DNA of 60,252 bases from Planctomycetales bacterium. GTDB taxonomy: Bacteria; Omnitrophota; Gorgyraeia; Gygaellales; Profunditerraquicolaceae. The stretch lies in assembly GCA_005239725.1 (NCBI GenBank), contig SBBM01000023.1:1-60252 (forward strand). Reading direction: 5' to 3'. Under the pieces are notes generated by a model, which saw only the letters and a list, made by a program, of their open reading frames with translations, searched no databases and had not been told where the DNA came from. The translations under genes and the position numbers were made by a program. Shown here piece after piece: positions 7,933 through 60,067 of the stretch. Every line of letters starts with the position of its first letter. The stretch's first letter is position 1.

Positions 7933-9189
7933 TTAACTGGCGTCTTCATTTACCTCCCTGACAGAACTGAGAAAAGAACCTTTGGCCAATATTGTTTTTA
8001 CCGAATCGCCGGGTTTTAATTTGTCTGCCTCTCTGATAATTGCCCCGTCGGGCATAAGCATAGTCAGGCTGTAGCCGCGCGATAATATGGAAAGGGGGCT
8101 TAGGGTCTCTAATTTTTCAATTAAGGATTTGAACTTTTCTTTTAACATATTCAAGAAATGCGCTGCATTTGAATTTAATGCGTTAACCAGCTCATCAAGC
8201 AGCTGCTGCTTTTCCAATAGCCGGTCTAAGGGGCTCTTGAGCATATGCCTTAAAGCCACAAGGCCATGGCGCAGATCAGCAATAAACGTTGAAAGTGAAG
8301 AGTTTAACCTGTATTTATAAGTGTCTATCTGAGCAAGCAGCGCGTTTTTCTTATCCACGATAACCTTGGCTGCGGCTGACGGTGTTTCCACAAATACATC
8401 CGCCACAAGGTCGGAAAGCGTAACGTTTATCTGATGGCCAACGGCAGAAATCGTAGGTATTCTGGAATTATATACTGCCCTGGCAACGGCCTCTTCATTA
8501 AATGACCAGAGGTCTTCGAGGCTACCCCCTCCGCGGCAGATTATGATTACATCCACTTCCTTTCCCGCAAAATGCGGGATCCCGCCCTCACCTTCATTCG
8601 CTTGGCGGGAATATTTATTAAAGTCTTCGATTGCCTCGGCTATCTCCCGCCAGGCGCCCTCGCCTTGCACCCTTACCGAGCGTATCAGGACATCTACGCA
8701 AGGGGCGCCTTTCTTAAGTATCTGCAATATATCCCTCACTGCCGCGCCGGCGCTAGAGGTAACAATGCCAAGCCGAAACGGCATAAGGGGAAGCGGTTTT
8801 TTATGTTCAGGGGCAAACAGGCCCTCTTTAAGCAACCTGGCCTTTAACTGCTCAAAAGCCAACTGCTGCGCGCCCACCCCTTCAGGCTCAATCTTTTCTA
8901 CGATTAACTGGTATTGCCCGCGCGGAGAGTAGACTTCAATCCTGCCGAAGCATATTACCTTAAGCCCGTCTTCAATCTTAAATTTAACTTCGCGATTGGC
9001 GCGGATAAACATCGCCGCTGCCAGGACCGAAGCTTCATCTTTTATGGTAAAATAAAAGTGGCCGGATGTAGCTACTTTAAAATTAGAGACCTCCCCCTCA
9101 ACCCAGACCTCTCTGAATGTGTTCTCTAAAACTACTTTTATATCGCGGGTAATCTCGGATACCGTATAGATGTGCCTGGTTTCTACCAT
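7933..9189 (-). CDS. xseA: Exodeoxyribonuclease VII large subunit, carrying an in-frame palindromic-element insertion
   Basis: OB-fold N-terminus VWVEGEVSNFK, GIVTSSAGAAVRDI, RGGGSLEDLWSFNEE. Confidence 0.9.
   Translation of the reverse strand: MVETRHIYTVSEITRDIKVVLENTFREVWVEGEVSNFKVATSGHFYFTIKDEASVLAAAMFIRANREVKFKIEDGLKVICFGRIEVYSPRGQYQLIVEKIEPEGVGAQQLAFEQLKARLLKEGLFAPEHKKPLPLMPFRLGIVTSSAGAAVRDILQILKKGAPCVDVLIRSVRVQGEGAWREIAEAIEDFNKYSRQANEGEGGIPHFAGKEVDVIIICRGGGSLEDLWSFNEEAVARAVYNSRIPTISAVGHQINVTLSDLVADVFVETPSAAAKVIVDKKNALLAQIDTYKYRLNSSLSTFIADLRHGLVALRHMLKSPLDRLLEKQQLLDELVNALNSNAAHFLNMLKEKFKSLIEKLETLSPLSILSRGYSLTMLMPDGAIIREADKLKPGDSVKTILAKGSFLSSVREVNEDAS
8563..8610 (+). repeat. Double-hairpin palindromic element, 48 nt, inside the xseA coding sequence
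   Basis: TCCCGCA-AAA-TGCGGGA | TCCCGCC-N17-GGCGGGA. Contains GCGGGATCCCGC at 8574-8585. Confidence 0.85.
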
Positions 9190-44908: not shown

Positions 44909-45020
44909 GTCCCCATCGTCTAGCCTGGCCCAGGACAAGAGCTTTTTCCCGCCAGGCTATGGGATAGCAGGCGGGATCCCGCCCTGATGCGTAAAGGGGT
45001 CGGGCGGGACAAGCTCTCGA
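44909..45020 (+). pseudogene. tRNA-Glu(UUC) 5' fragment (positions 1 to ~46), interrupted in the anticodon by a 63-nt palindromic element
   Basis: 44909-44946 is identical to 45268-45305, and 45010-45020 is identical to 45306-45316. No T arm or 3' acceptor strand. Confidence 0.85.
44947..45009 (+). repeat. Double-hairpin palindromic element, archetype copy (63 nt)
   Basis: TCCCGCC-AGGCTATGGGATAGCA-GGCGGGA | TCCCGCC-CTGATGCGTAAAGGGGTCG-GGCGGGA. Confidence 0.9.
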
Positions 45021-45024
45021 TCGC

Positions 45025-45267
45025 ATGTATTGTGTGTATGTTCTAGAGAATGCAAAAGGCAAACATTATATCGGTAGTTGTGAAAATTTAGACCTGAGAT
45101 TAAAACGGCATAATCAAAACAGCGTCAGGTCAACAAAGAATAAGGGGCCTTTTAAAATAATCTATAAAGAGGAATTTTGCACGGTAACGCAAGCGCGTAG
45201 GCGCGAGAACGAACTAAAAAGCTATAAAGGCAACGCCAAATTTCAGAAAACAATAGATAGAATGTAA
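45025..45267 (+). CDS. Stand-alone GIY-YIG nuclease-domain protein (80 aa)
   Basis: YCVYVLENAKGKHYIGSCENLDLRLKRHN (GIY...YIG), ARRRENELK. Its stop codon abuts tRNA-Glu position 1. Confidence 0.8.
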   Translation: MYCVYVLENAKGKHYIGSCENLDLRLKRHNQNSVRSTKNKGPFKIIYKEEFCTVTQARRRENELKSYKGNAKFQKTIDRM

Positions 45268-45342
45268 GTCCCCATCGTCTAGCCTGGCCCAGGACAAGAG
45301 CTTTTCAAGCTCTCGACACCGGTTCAAATCCGGTTGGGGACG
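45268..45342 (+). tRNA. tRNA-Glu (anticodon UUC)
   Basis: Acceptor GTCCCCA/TGGGGAC, anticodon arm AGAGC-TTTTCAA-GCTCT, T arm ACCGG-TTCAAAT-CCGGT. Confidence 0.9.
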
Positions 45343-45395
45343 TTTAATTTCTCCACCCGCAGCGGAGTTCGCTAAACAAGAGCTTAAGGTGCTCA

Positions 45396-53509: not shown

Positions 53510-54748
53510 ATGGAGTTTATAGCGGATTTCCATATTCATTCTAAATACTCGCGCGCTACTTCCAAGGATATGGATGTAAAGCATGTTGCGGAGTGGGCAA
53601 AATTAAAGGGCATTACCCTGATGGGCAGCGGAGATTTCACGCATCATCTTTGGCTGGAAGAATTAAAGGCAAATTTAGAAGATTTGGGTAATGGATTATT
53701 CAAATACAACGGGGTGTATTTTGTCCTCACCGTTGAGATAAGCAGCATATATTCAAAAAACGGCAGGGGTTACCGCATACACAACATGATTTTCGCCCCC
53801 TCATTTAAAACCGCGGATAAAATAAACGACGCGTTATCGCGGCGGGGAAATTTAAGTTCGGATGGCAGGCCCATACTGGGGCTGGATGCCGAGGAACTCG
53901 CGCACATCATATTCGATATTGACGAGAACTGCATGGTTGTGCCCGGGCATATCTGGACCCCCTGGTTTAGCCTCTTCGGTTCAATGTCGGGTTTTGATAA
54001 GATTGAAGATTGCTTTGAGAAAGAAACCCCGAAAATATTTGCATTGGAGACCGGGCTTAGCAGCGACCCTGGTATGAACTGGCGGCTCTCCGCACTGGAT
54101 AAATTTGCATTAATCAGTAATTCCGACAGCCACTCGCCGCAGAAGATCGGCAGGGAGGCCAATGTCTTTGACTGTGAATTGGATTATAAAACTATAAGGG
54201 AGGTATTAAAAACTAAAGATAAGAAGAGGTTTTTATACACCATAGAATTTTTCCCCGAGGAAGGCAAGTATCATTTTGACGGCCACCGCCTCTGTAATAC
54301 CCGGCTTTCCCCGAAAGAGACAAAACAGAATAAGGGAAAATGCCCCAGGTGCAGCAAGAACGTTACCGTGGGAGTAATGAACAGGGTTGAGCAGCTGGCC
54401 GACAGGGAAGAAGGATTTAAGCCGGATAATTTAATTCCGTTTAAAAATCTTATCCCGCTCGATGAAATTATTGCCGAGGCCAAGGGCGTGGGGAAGGTCA
54501 CGCAGGCAGTAGAAAGGGAATATCGCAGTTTAATATCTAAATTCGGCACGGAATTTAACATTTTGCTCAAGGTCCCCAAAGAGGATTTAATTAAGAATGC
54601 CCCGGAACGCATCGCCGAAGGTATTATCAGGATGCGCGAAGGCAAAGTCAACATTAAAGCCGGTTACGACGGAGAATACGGGATAATTTCCCTTTTCGGG
54701 GAAGACGAAAAACCCAAAGAGCCCGAGCAGCAGATGAGCCTCTTCTAG
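53510..54748 (+). CDS. Endonuclease Q-like PHP-domain protein (TIGR00375 type)
   Basis: ADFHIHSKYSRATS, GSGDF, PGHIWTPWFSLF, SNSDSHSPQKIGREANVF, CPRCSKNVTVGV, AGYDGEYG. Colinear with archaeal EndoQ as recalled from memory. Confidence 0.7.
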   Translation: MEFIADFHIHSKYSRATSKDMDVKHVAEWAKLKGITLMGSGDFTHHLWLEELKANLEDLGNGLFKYNGVYFVLTVEISSIYSKNGRGYRIHNMIFAPSFKTADKINDALSRRGNLSSDGRPILGLDAEELAHIIFDIDENCMVVPGHIWTPWFSLFGSMSGFDKIEDCFEKETPKIFALETGLSSDPGMNWRLSALDKFALISNSDSHSPQKIGREANVFDCELDYKTIREVLKTKDKKRFLYTIEFFPEEGKYHFDGHRLCNTRLSPKETKQNKGKCPRCSKNVTVGVMNRVEQLADREEGFKPDNLIPFKNLIPLDEIIAEAKGVGKVTQAVEREYRSLISKFGTEFNILLKVPKEDLIKNAPERIAEGIIRMREGKVNIKAGYDGEYGIISLFGEDEKPKEPEQQMSLF

Positions 54749-54763
54749 GGGACGTTTCCCTTC
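54748..54763 (+). repeat. 16-mer GGGGACGTTTCCCTTC, copy 1
   Basis: Identical to 55391-55406. Overlaps the EndoQ-like stop codon. Confidence 0.85.
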
Positions 54764-54805
54764 CGCCGAACCCCTTTGATTGGAACAAGTTATGAGGAGG
54801 TAGAT

Positions 54806-55285
54806 ATGAAAAGTATAATTGTTTATTATTCTTATACAGGCAATACTAAAAAGGTAGCGCAAGATTTAAAGGAAATATTGACAGAAAAAGGGGAAATTGA
54901 TAGTATAGAGTTGTCCAGTATTGACGAGGCAAAATCTTTTTTAGGTCAGTGCCGCCGGGCGTTTTTTAAAAAGAGAGCGCAAATTGCGCCGGTTAATCTT
55001 GATCTCTCAAAATATGATTTAATTTGTTTAGGAACCCCTGTCTGGGCCTTTAAACCTGCGCCGGCAATGAATACTTATTTGGATAAATGTTCAGGGGTAG
55101 AAGGGAAAGAAATAATTTTGTTCACTACTTACGGCAGCGGCAGAGGGAACGAGCAGTGCTTGAATTATATGCAGGGCATCTTGGCTAAAAAAGGCGCAAC
55201 AAATTTTAGAAGGTTTTCTGTCCAACAGGGCGAAGTTAATAATAAAGAATCAGTTCTTTCTGAAATCAAATCAGCAATCTCCTGA
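54806..55285 (+). CDS. Flavodoxin-family protein
   Basis: GAGGAGG SD before ATG 54806. MKSIIVYYSYTGNTKKVAQ FMN-binding N-terminus. Confidence 0.75.
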   Translation: MKSIIVYYSYTGNTKKVAQDLKEILTEKGEIDSIELSSIDEAKSFLGQCRRAFFKKRAQIAPVNLDLSKYDLICLGTPVWAFKPAPAMNTYLDKCSGVEGKEIILFTTYGSGRGNEQCLNYMQGILAKKGATNFRRFSVQQGEVNNKESVLSEIKSAIS

Positions 55286-55301
55286 AATCTTTCCAAATAA
55301 T

Positions 55302-55385
55302 GCGCGGGTGGTGGAATGGCAGACACGCTACTTTGAGGGGGTAGTGGGGCGACCTGTGAGGGTTCAACTCCCTCCCCGCGCACCA
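55302..55385 (+). tRNA. tRNA-Leu (anticodon GAG), CCA encoded
   Basis: Acceptor GCGCGGG/CCCGCGC, anticodon arm CTACT-TTGAGGG-GGTAG, long variable arm, T arm GAGGG-TTCAACT-CCCTC, A-CCA. Confidence 0.85.
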
Positions 55386-55390
55386 AATCA

Positions 55391-55406
55391 GGGGACGTTT
55401 CCCTTC
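55391..55406 (+). repeat. 16-mer GGGGACGTTTCCCTTC, copy 2 (left flank of the RAYT gene)
   Basis: Contains the mini-hairpin GGGA-CGTT-TCCC. Confidence 0.85.
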
Positions 55407-55490
55407 TTTAAAACTCTTTGTCAGGCATTGAATTACAACAAGGCACTTTGGGAATTCTGATTCGCACCATATTTTTAAAAATTTTCAGTT

Positions 55491-55538
55491 AGATTTTTCT
55501 CCTTCGGCCGTCTATTAGAATAGAAAGGAGAAAAATCT
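55491..55538 (+). promoter_or_regulatory. Perfect 14-bp hairpin AGATTTTTCTCCTT / AAGGAGAAAAATCT sequestering the SD of the transposase gene
   Basis: The right arm ends 1 nt before ATG 55540 and contains AAGGAG. Confidence 0.7.
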
Positions 55539-55539
55539 T

Positions 55540-56115
55540 ATGCCGAGGCAACCCAGGATAATCCCGCCTGAAGGGTTCCTTCATGTTATTTCGCGGGGGA
55601 ATAACCGCAGAAAATTATTTCTCATCCAAAAAGATTTCAGGGTCTACCGTTTGTTATTGAAAAAACTCAAACAAGAAGAGTCAATCAAGATATACCATTA
55701 TTGCCTGATGATAAACCACGTGCATCTTTTGATTGGGGTGGGAGAAGATAGTAACATCGCAAGGTTCATGAAGAGGCTGGGGTTGAAATATTTCTATTAT
55801 TATCAGAAACGATATAATTACACAGGATATTTATGGCAGGGTCGTTTTAAAAGTAAAATAATAGAAGATGATGGCTATTTGATACAATGCGGCAAATATA
55901 TCGAGTTGAATCCGGTAAGGGCAGGTGTTGTAAAAATAGCGCAAGATTATCCTTATTCTAGTTACCGATATTATGGGTTAGGGATAGAAGATAAGCTTAT
56001 AGACGAAGATCCATTATATAAAGAATTCGGCAAGAATATCGCAAGCAGGCAGCTTAGCTATAGCAATATGATTATAAATGAGGCAAGTTGCAAAAAATAT
56101 ATCGTAGAGGCCTAA
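55540..56115 (+). CDS. IS200-like Y1 (HUH) transposase / REP-associated tyrosine transposase (RAYT)-like protein
   Basis: HVISRGNNR, INHVHLLI (HUH), GYLWQGRFKS (catalytic Tyr region), YIELNPVRAG, YPYSSY. Confidence 0.8.
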   Translation: MPRQPRIIPPEGFLHVISRGNNRRKLFLIQKDFRVYRLLLKKLKQEESIKIYHYCLMINHVHLLIGVGEDSNIARFMKRLGLKYFYYYQKRYNYTGYLWQGRFKSKIIEDDGYLIQCGKYIELNPVRAGVVKIAQDYPYSSYRYYGLGIEDKLIDEDPLYKEFGKNIASRQLSYSNMIINEASCKKYIVEA

Positions 56116-56147
56116 TTGTAACTTATTGTTGTTTATGTGGTTAGAAA

Positions 56148-56163
56148 GAAGGGAAGCGTCCCC
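56148..56163 (-). repeat. 16-mer copy 3, inverted (GAAGGGAAGCGTCCCC on plus; 15/16 match)
   Basis: Right flank of the RAYT gene. Touches the stop of the response-regulator gene. Confidence 0.8.
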
Positions 56164-57089
56164 TATTTGCGTTTGTCTTTTACGTAGTTGCTTTTCTCTA
56201 CACCCTTGGCGTAACTTTTCAGTTCCGCGCCGATTTCGCCTATCTGGGCAACGTGTTCTATCTTCCTGAATTCATTGGTAACTACGCCGATGGAAATGGA
56301 GACAAGGGGGATTTTACGTTCCGTGCCCTGACGGTCATGACCGATTATGTAGCCATTTTTTCTGTCGGTTTCATTGTAAAAAGAAGGCGATATTTTATCG
56401 AAGTCCGCGATTATCTTTTCGCATATTTTATCTGACGTTTCAAGCGCAGTAACAACCACAAAATCATCGCCGCCGATATGGCCTATAAAATCATCCGGTC
56501 CGCCCTCTTCCTTGACCGCGCGTATCAAAGTACGGGCGGTTTCTTTTATAACTTCGTCTCCGTGCTCAAACCCGTACTTATCGTTATAGGCTTTGAATTT
56601 ATCCAGGTCTATGTAGCATACTGCAAAGAGCGCTTTACTTTCTATCCGGCGCGAAAACTCATTCAATATGGAAACATTGCCGGGGAGTCGCGTTAAGGGG
56701 TTTGCCTCAAGGTCCCTGACTGCGCGCCGGATAACCATGCGTATGCGCGCCAGCAGTTCTTTGGGCTCAAAGGGCTTCACTATATAATCGTCTGCGCCGG
56801 CATCAATGCCGCCGACCTTACTATCCACATCGCCTGAGCCGGTTACCATTATGACAGGCAGATGGCTTAAGAGGATGTCGCCTTTAATTTTTTTACAGAC
56901 TTCCCGTCCGTCCATTTTCGGCATATGGTAATCTAAAAGCACTATGTCGGGCTGTTTTGTGAGCACTGCTTTAAGCGCGTCTTCGCCGTTAGCGGTTTCG
57001 ATAACTTCATAATTCTCTTCGGAGAGTGTTAGCTTAATCACGTCTCTAATATCGGGGTCGTCATCGGCTATCACTATTTTTATAGCCAT
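56163..57089 (-). CDS. Response regulator with a GGDEF-type domain (variant GGDDF motif)
   Basis: REC: IADDDPDIRD, DIVLLDYHMPKMDG. Output: PLTRLPGN, DLDKFKAYNDKYGFEHGDEV, HIGGDDFVVV. Confidence 0.8.
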   Translation of the reverse strand: MAIKIVIADDDPDIRDVIKLTLSEENYEVIETANGEDALKAVLTKQPDIVLLDYHMPKMDGREVCKKIKGDILLSHLPVIMVTGSGDVDSKVGGIDAGADDYIVKPFEPKELLARIRMVIRRAVRDLEANPLTRLPGNVSILNEFSRRIESKALFAVCYIDLDKFKAYNDKYGFEHGDEVIKETARTLIRAVKEEGGPDDFIGHIGGDDFVVVTALETSDKICEKIIADFDKISPSFYNETDRKNGYIIGHDRQGTERKIPLVSISIGVVTNEFRKIEHVAQIGEIGAELKSYAKGVEKSNYVKDKRK

Positions 57090-59977: not shown

Positions 59978-60067
59978 TTCTACCGGTTCTCCCCCCCAAT
60001 CTATACGCTAGAGGGCGGGATCCCGCTCGCGGTAAAATAAAATGGCGGGAAAATCTGGTTGGGGCTA
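59978..60067 (-). repeat. Palindromic-element copy inserted at the tRNA-Glu(CUC) 3' end, followed by a 17-nt duplicate of the tRNA end
   Basis: CTATACGCT plus GGGCGGGATCCCGC core at 60012-60049. AAATCT[C/G]GTTGGGGCTA occurs at 59961-59977 and at 60051-60067. Confidence 0.8.

Follow-up and report, generated by a model that had tools for sequence, protein, structure and literature searches.

A probable TIRtron-type cassette with a RAYT-class Y1 transposase gene and long terminal inverted repeats in an Omnitrophota contig

The 60,252-nucleotide stretch of contig SBBM01000023.1 from an Omnitrophota genome (assembly GCA_005239725.1; this whole stretch is hereafter called the window) carries at positions 55390-56166 a cassette that we consider, with a probability of about 0.7, to be a genuine and well-delimited TIRtron, namely one intact gene for a RAYT-class Y1 (HUH) transposase of the subclass 2.1-like type (TIRYT), accompanied by long imperfect terminal inverted repeats with the core (A)GGGGACGnTTC. 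Quentin et al. (2018, PMC6006769) equate their TnpA-Y1 subclass 2.1 with the TIRYT enzymes of TIRtrons (Di Nocera et al., 2013, PMC3733652) and with the Group 1 RAYTs (Bertels et al., 2017, PMC5581495). The cassette, the gene of which is single-copy, is a further example of an already described but poorly studied class. It has several minor new features, including a G at position 7 of the end motif, a short protein, a leader hairpin, and ends that provide stop codons.

Limits and anatomy of the unit

The exact 16-mer GGGGACGTTTCCCTTC occurs twice on the plus strand of the window, at 54748-54763 (copy 1) and 55391-55406 (copy 2), and its reverse complement is found with one mismatch at 56148-56163 (copy 3), and a match with three mismatches at 45336-45351 is located at the 3' end of tRNA-Glu(UUC). 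These are the four matches obtained at up to three mismatches, a number that was reached in none of 100 dinucleotide shuffles. Copy 2 lies 133 nt upstream of the transposase start codon (55540), copy 3 lies 32 nt downstream of the end of the stop codon (56115), and copies 1 and 2 are 643 nt apart, with the flavodoxin gene (54806-55285) and tRNA-Leu(GAG) (55302-55385) between them. The original prediction placed these copies and spacings correctly to within a base; however, the repeat is longer than it stated. Copies 2 and 3 are the cores of 25-nt terminal inverted repeats that are complementary at 22 of 25 positions (88%), and aligning the left end and the reverse-complemented right end with copy 1 and with the two ends of locus L014, the closest homologue, extends each end to approximately 55 nt with three blocks, AGGGGACGnTTCyC, AAC, and AAGTTAyAA. 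Judged from its blocks, copy 1 is a solo element end. The 4-bp mini-hairpin GGGA-CGTT-TCCC noted in the original prediction is thermodynamically unremarkable, as a single end folds no better than its shuffles (z about -0.8 to -1.0). We found no GT[AG]G foot or GT[AG]G-tagged palindrome in the flanks of the gene and no tnpB among the open reading frames (ORFs).

The limits of the unit come from the comparison with related loci. Locus L210, from the closest relative, the EndoQ of which is 92% identical to that of the window, is collinear with the window through the genes for EndoQ, flavodoxin, and tRNA-Leu to position 55389, and again from position 56167 into a response-regulator/GGDEF gene. Between the collinear parts, L210 contains a different 1.58-kb insert with a gene for a 515-aa membrane protein and no transposase unit, and it has no copy of the repeat. 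This collinearity shows that 55390-56166 is a discrete replaceable unit with its limits at the inverted repeats. The homology with L014 spans tRNA-Leu to position 56164 and ends there. It had been proposed that copies 1 and 2 bracket the flavodoxin and tRNA-Leu(GAG) genes; their positions are as described, but both genes occupy the same place in L210 in the absence of any copy and are therefore native, so copies 1 and 2 bound no composite element. A composite transposon or a mobile flavodoxin-tRNA unit between these copies is thus rejected. The spacer between the EndoQ and flavodoxin genes differs between the two loci, as it contains copy 1 in the window and an unrelated nested palindrome at the matching position in L210 (2932-3030; GCACCGTTTGCAAA ... 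TTTGCAAACGGTGC around CCTGTACC..GGTACAGG).

Copy 1 and the right end both begin with TAGGGGACG, the outermost TAG of which is the stop codon of the abutting gene (54746-54748 and 56163-56165, respectively). The EndoQ gene is closed by TAG in the window and by TAA in L210. For the convergent response-regulator/GGDEF gene, the terminal CTA of the right repeat constitutes its TAG stop, and the encoded protein ends with ..KRK* in the window versus ..KRKPE* in L210, where the gene is two codons longer. Across the family, 36 copies are preceded by TAG, and in seven of these, including the two in the window, the TAG terminates an ORF of at least 80 codons, compared with 2.2% of all TAG triplets. Loci other than the window in which the end TAG is a gene stop are L018, L030, L032, L040, and L079.

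The guanine-plus-cytosine (GC) content of the transposase gene is 37% versus 45% in the rest of the window. Transposase genes are richer in AT than their flanks in 23 of 24 loci (window included), by 6.5 points on average, and cluster at about 32-38% GC (two at 42-43%) in hosts with a GC content of 31-51%. The distance from tRNA-Leu(GAG) to the left end downstream of it is 4 nt in the window, 7 nt in L014 (76% identity), and 17 nt in L019 (58% identity), where kinase/regulator genes are also found nearby; this adjacency fits either long residence at one locus or a site preference. Other units are located within 150 nt of tRNA-Gln, tRNA-Ala, or tRNA-Thr. The absence of the unit from L210 and the widely different contexts speak against purely vertical descent, and vertical and horizontal inheritance probably both operate.

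Table 1. Coordinates of the cassette, its parts, and adjoining features (window positions unless a locus is named).
Feature	Position	Strand	Basis
Whole unit (TIRtron): left end, leader, Y1 gene, right end; 777 bp	55390..56166	+	L210 collinearity, L014 homology limit, gene GC
Left terminal inverted repeat, core AGGGGACGTTTCCCTTC (copy 2)	55390..55414	+	25-nt arm, 22/25 to 56140-56164; motif also upstream of homologues
Left subterminal block B, GAATTACAACAAGGC	55430..55444	+	Aligns with reverse complement of 56110-56124, copy 1, and both L014 ends
Leader: GTTAGATT box, then 14-bp hairpin	55488..55539	+	Pairing and homologous leaders
Y1 HUH tyrosine transposase gene, 191 aa, TIRYT / RAYT subclass 2.1-like	55540..56115	+	Pfam, NCBIfam, 4ER8 by sequence and fold
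Right subterminal block B, reverse complement AAGTTACAATTAGGC, overlapping the gene's stop codon	56110..56124	-	End alignment
Right terminal inverted repeat (copy 3, core 56148-56163)	56140..56164	-	25-nt arm
Copy 1: solo element end, ~46 nt, all three end blocks	54747..54792	+	End alignment; starts on EndoQ stop TAG
tRNA-Leu(GAG), native neighbour outside the unit; left end begins 4 nt after it	55302..55385	+	Present in L210 without the unit
Units adjoining tRNA-Leu(GAG)	window 55302-55390; L014 205-295; L019 9773-9877

The transposase and its leader

The gene encodes a 191-aa protein that matches Pfam Y1_Tnp (55 bits) and has intact catalytic residues, with the HUH pair formed by H60 and H62 and the catalytic tyrosine Y120 located in GKYIELNP. 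These three residues, as well as the NHVH and YIELNP motifs, are invariant in an alignment of 42 relatives. Among the NCBIfam models, REP_Tyr_transpos scores 70.8 bits (below its cutoff of 80) and transpos_IS200 scores 17.7 bits (cutoff 55), and all 42 aligned relatives match REP_Tyr_transpos. The sole transposase matched in a sequence search of the PDB is the E. coli TnpA_REP (4ER8, E 4.8e-5), and no IS200/IS608 chains were matched at E<=1. The AlphaFold model (pLDDT 89.8) likewise has 4ER8 as its top Foldseek match (E 2e-8, TMt 0.77), with the IS608, ISDra2, and IS200 TnpA structures behind it (E about 6e-6, TMq 0.44-0.47). The HUH motif combined with Y---NP and the closeness of the fold to TnpA_REP are those of a class 2 RAYT, and YIELNP stands in place of the Y---Q motif of IS200/IS605 subclass 1.1. 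By sequence and modeled fold, the enzyme is of the RAYT type and not of the IS200 type, as was originally proposed.

Four motifs, NHVH (residues 59-62), WQ (99-100), YIELNP (120-125), and SS (140-141), match the set that Quentin et al. (2018; PMC6006769) list in their Table 1 for TnpA-Y1 subclass 2.1, namely NHVH, W[EQ], YIELNP, and a proximal SS. The TIRYT/TIRtron class fits the cassette better than a REP-flanked RAYT does. The likeness to this class extends to the long inverted repeats starting with GGGG, to the low copy number, and to the moderately abundant solo, dimeric, or clustered repeat copies; PMC3733652 reports TIRtrons whose repeat families are dimeric or clustered. The protein is 39% identical (E 4e-46) to a Pseudomonas aeruginosa member of the class with GGGGACAG-type repeats, the gene of which is flanked by the 22-nt repeat AAAGGGGACAGATTTATTTTCC. 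The window's cassette differs from the published members in its host, an Omnitrophota bacterium, in its core sequence, and in the length of its protein (191 aa versus a median of 238 aa), which has no distal C-terminal helix-turn-helix-like domain or tail. The longer relatives and the P. aeruginosa protein continue to a ..GRP.. tail, and we found no second Pfam domain in the 191-aa protein, in the longer relatives, or in the P. aeruginosa protein.

Another difference is in the leader. A perfect 14-bp hairpin (55491-55504 / 55525-55538) immediately 5' of the ATG pairs the Shine-Dalgarno (SD) sequence AAGGAG with an upstream anti-SD. The same order of elements is kept in relatives, namely the GTTAGATT box, the anti-SD, a loop with the conserved CGTCTATTA, and the SD. 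Folding each leader separately, anchored on the SD, we obtained a predicted paired SD in 18 of 23 distinct homologous leaders, with a mean z of -3.7 versus shuffles and with several pair types at the positions flanking the SD. RNAalifold returned no structure for the MAFFT alignment of the 23 leaders because the 3' arms were misaligned in it. As predicted from these pairings, the conserved leader hairpin occludes the ribosome-binding site, and by analogy such sequestration of the SD would normally keep translation low. A conserved SD-occluding leader is not described in the accessible text of PMC3733652, PMC6006769, and PMC5581495.

Inverted ends across the family and copies away from the gene

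The search for relatives of the transposase yielded 1329 homologues at E<=1e-10, the named ones of which are from Omnitrophota metagenome-assembled genomes and nearly all of which are found on one contig each. Among the loci fetched by exact-protein look-up and a metagenome scan, the inverted motif GGGAC[GC], present upstream with its complement downstream, was identified at 40 of 47 distinct homologues and in 2 of 460 control windows, and it persists to about 45% protein identity in unrelated gene neighborhoods. These counts mark the inverted flanks as conserved family-wide, i.e., as a family trait. The REPtron-type arrangement suggested by the original prediction thus stands as far as the inverted flanks are concerned, but not as regards canonical repetitive extragenic palindromes (REPs), as there is no GT[AG]G palindrome and the long terminal inverted repeats fit a TIRtron (PMC3733652 and PMC6006769) better than a REPtron. 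The end motif is GGGGACGT / GGGGACGC in the window and GGGGACG[GCT] in the family. The inverted repeats of plasmid-borne relatives (~40% identity) are of the GGGGACAG or GGGGTCAG type and agree with the published consensus.

Three homologue loci deserve separate description. A P. aeruginosa record (L215, NZ_CP116719.1, 14239-22862) has three near-identical TIRYT genes for 230-aa proteins scattered between toxin-domain cassettes (DUF637, EndoU, deaminase, and glutamine deamidase), and each of the three genes has the 22-nt inverted repeat AAAGGGGACAGATTTATTTTCC. The 533-kb contig Ga0315294_10000001 encodes two divergent paralogues, L036 and L081, which are 47% and 43% identical to the query; the ends are GGGGACGCATCA in L036 and GGGGACGGTTCT in L081. 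In L010 (8834-9059), the left end is 225 nt from the ATG, compared with the usual distance of about 135 nt, and the extra ~90 nt contain two other small palindromes, CGGGACAGGTCCC and CGGGATCTGTCCC, which suggests that a second repeat family was inserted inside the unit.

The motif also occurs away from the gene. Beyond the units themselves, 420 kb of the homologue loci contain 23 copies versus an expectation of about 5, including 4 convergent pairs, and in several of these loci the dispersed copies are identical to the cognate ends. At least 116 GTDB genome stretches contain the exact 17-mer AGGGGACGYTTCCCTTC, which is accompanied by an inverted partner no more than 150 nt away in 30 of the 116 listed; among the hosts of the listed stretches are Omnitrophota, Planctomycetes, Steroidobacteraceae, Beta- and Gammaproteobacteria, and Olsenella. 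The source contig is not among the matches listed (at least 116). By our own arithmetic, about 140 chance matches are expected in a complete GTDB scan, therefore lone matches are uninformative and only inverted pairs count. Such doublets form perfect hairpins of 16-20 bp (z -7 to -8) with a total length of 40-60 nt, for example AAAAGGGGACGTTTCCCTTCCGTCTTGAAGGGAAACGTCCCCTTTT, and folding of this quality is not seen for a single end. No relative of the enzyme was found on viral contigs, which gave one lone 17-mer match.

In the source sequencing run, searched as contigs, we detected at least 6 further copies on contigs with a depth of 25-27x (27.5x for the contig of the window). A 25.6-kb contig has two of them, a 12.1-kb contig has an inverted pair separated by ~100 nt at its end, an 8.9-kb contig has a terminal one, and a 12.9-kb contig contains a 45-nt stretch matching copy 1 (84% identity). 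The left end and copy 1 matched other contigs of the run; the right end had no other copy there. The unit itself is assembled through inside the 60-kb contig, and no other contig of the run matches its gene at >=90% identity. The expectations that the motif occurs elsewhere, often in inverted pairs, and that the gene has no multiple identical copies were both borne out in these data.

Alternative explanations, proposed mechanism, and side loci

Several observations weigh against the reading of the cassette as a TIRtron with end doublets spread by enzymes of its kind. The protein misses the cutoff of the NCBIfam RAYT model and stops at residue 191, before the distal C-terminal tail that subclass 2.1 proteins typically have, and the core GGGGACG(G/C/T) differs from the published GGGG[AT][CG]A[CG] at position 7 (G, not A). 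A tblastn search with the enzyme against the 116 listed AGGGGACGYTTCCCTTC loci in GTDB (8 kb each) gave no match. In the source run, depth alone ties the other contigs to the same genome, and the 60-kb window has no further copy outside the 1.4-kb locus, which indicates a modest abundance of the repeat in the source genome; the three copies in the window fall short of the abundance of REPs. Finally, we found no TIRYT biochemistry or activity in the searchable literature, so that the substrate, the strand, and the cleavage site are all inferred.

An autonomous insertion sequence, in which the whole 777-bp cassette moves itself while the solo ends and doublets are debris (deletion derivatives and abortive events), is a possibility that we regard as doubtful. 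It would agree with boundaries that fall exactly at the inverted repeats in the comparisons with L210 and L014, with homologues in unrelated contexts, with genes that stay near 32-38% GC whatever the host GC and are AT-richer than the hosts in 23 of 24 loci, with the P. aeruginosa record carrying three near-identical copies with 22-nt inverted repeats, and with the report by Bertels et al. (PMC5581495) that, of the RAYT-clade groups, Group 1 RAYTs have the highest duplication rate and are in some cases carried on plasmids. However, the gene is single-copy in the source run, and nearly every homologue is found on one contig. The doublets are perfect hairpins with both ends kept, which resembles propagation and not random decay, and the location of three homologues beside tRNA-Leu(GAG), in L019 together with the neighboring kinase/regulator genes, fits long vertical residence.

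A canonical REPtron, i.e., a domesticated RAYT flanked by its REPs and served by a genomic REP population arranged as bacterial interspersed mosaic elements (BIMEs), was the reading of the original prediction and is unlikely. Like the E. coli TnpA_REP (RayT/YafM, 4ER8) with its REP/BIME sequences, the window's system combines an HUH/Y1 fold, for which 4ER8 is the best match by sequence and structure, with inverted flanking repeats, a single-copy gene, and dispersed inverted pairs. In contrast to that system, its ends are ~55 nt long with three blocks, a GTAG-tagged bulged palindrome and a significant fold within the single unit are absent, the copies are far fewer, and the Y motif is YIELNP versus YIHYNP; in addition, the NCBIfam RAYT cutoff is not reached, and the protein carries the motifs of subclass 2.1, in which Quentin et al. 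(PMC6006769) found no REPs.

It is highly improbable that the 16-mers are host regulatory or terminator sequences located near the gene by coincidence. The doublets do resemble bidirectional terminators (A-run, hairpin, T-run), copies 1 and 3 are at the 3' ends of genes, and a scan flags 56164-56150 on the minus strand as terminator-like. Nevertheless, the core is unchanged across phyla of very different GC content, the motif marks the exact limits of an inserted unit, and its association with the gene (40/47 versus 2/460) makes pure coincidence untenable. A secondary use of the ends as terminators may exist, and the 17-mer doublets are open to misannotation as terminators or REPs.

The leader hairpin occluding the SD is a feature known for Salmonella IS200. 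Together with the Pfam domain name 'Transposase IS200 like', it is what an ordinary IS200/IS605 element could claim here, and such an element can be practically dismissed, since it is contradicted by the motif and HMM (hidden Markov model) tests, i.e., the class 2 Y motif in place of Y---Q, the IS200 model score far below its cutoff, and no IS200/IS608 chain at E<=1, as well as by inverted-repeat ends where same-strand subterminal hairpins would be expected, no tnpB, and no extra copies. The window's enzyme shares its catalytic fold, and presumably its chemistry on single-stranded DNA, with the TnpA proteins of IS608 and ISDra2.

For the TIRtron, which we prefer, the following mechanism may be proposed on the model of IS608 TnpA and the TnpA_REP of E. 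coli, with metal-dependent cleavage of single-stranded DNA by a tyrosine nucleophile (PMC8266576 and PMC6006769). H60 and H62 would hold a divalent metal, and Y120 would cleave the single strand and become joined to it by a 5'-phosphotyrosine link. The substrate would be the end sequence on single-stranded DNA, most likely as a hairpin of two inverted copies paired on one strand, because a single end has no significant hairpin. The enzyme would move or copy end-derived doublets in trans, as is thought for REPINs, and might occasionally move its own cassette. The similarity to the REPIN-RAYT systems of Pseudomonas (Bertels and Rainey, 2011, PMC3116915) concerns a presumed mobile unit that is an inverted doublet with a long hairpin and a single-copy enzyme acting in trans; the differences are a distinct RAYT group, a much lower abundance, and an AT-rich gene in varied contexts, which suggests more horizontal movement.

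We tentatively propose, at considerably lower confidence than the assignment of the cassette itself, that the doublets of GGGGACG-core ends are a cross-phylum REPIN-like population spread in trans by TIRYT enzymes, represented here by a minimal 191-aa form, and that the inward-reading TAG, which provides a stop codon, allows the ends to settle at or within gene 3' ends. If true, this reading would overturn the published view of subclass 2.1 / Group 1 RAYTs as enzymes without an associated repeat family. The TIRYTs (subclass 2.1) are the largest RAYT group, and the described locus and its relatives make the handling of inverted, non-palindromic ends by a Y1 enzyme directly testable in a compact model that comprises a 191-aa enzyme, ~55-nt three-block ends, natural hairpin mini-substrates of 40-60 nt, and a related genome without the unit at the same site.

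Two further suggestions of the original prediction concern other loci in the window. The resemblance of the 16-mer to tRNA-Glu(UUC) comes down to the 7-mer GGGGACG, which tRNA-Glu(CUC) lacks, and a tRNA-Glu within 1 kb is present at just one other locus; mimicry of tRNA-Glu was thus rejected, as it involves the 7-mer only and shows no association with tRNA-Glu in other loci. A link to the sequence GCGGGATCCCGC is likewise not upheld, since GCGGGATCCCGC belongs to a different nested palindrome that has no GGGGACG core and never flanks the gene. This sequence is the center of the nested palindrome TTCCCGC..GCGGGATCCCGC..GGCGGGAA, with copies in the window at 8574 (inside a 418-aa ORF), 15505, 19218, 44971, and 60015. 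The copy at 60015 is located 38 nt after tRNA-Glu(CUC), and the 3' end of this tRNA, GTTGGGGCTA, is repeated after the copy. The region 44909-45342 contains a 5' half-copy of tRNA-Glu(UUC), the anticodon loop of which is broken by a ~70-nt nested palindrome centered on GCGGGATCCCGC, followed by an ORF for an 80-aa GIY-YIG nuclease (45025-45267; Pfam GIY-YIG, 54.9 bits), after which comes the intact tRNA-Glu; this arrangement resembles a small element that either inserted into or duplicated a portion of the tRNA gene.

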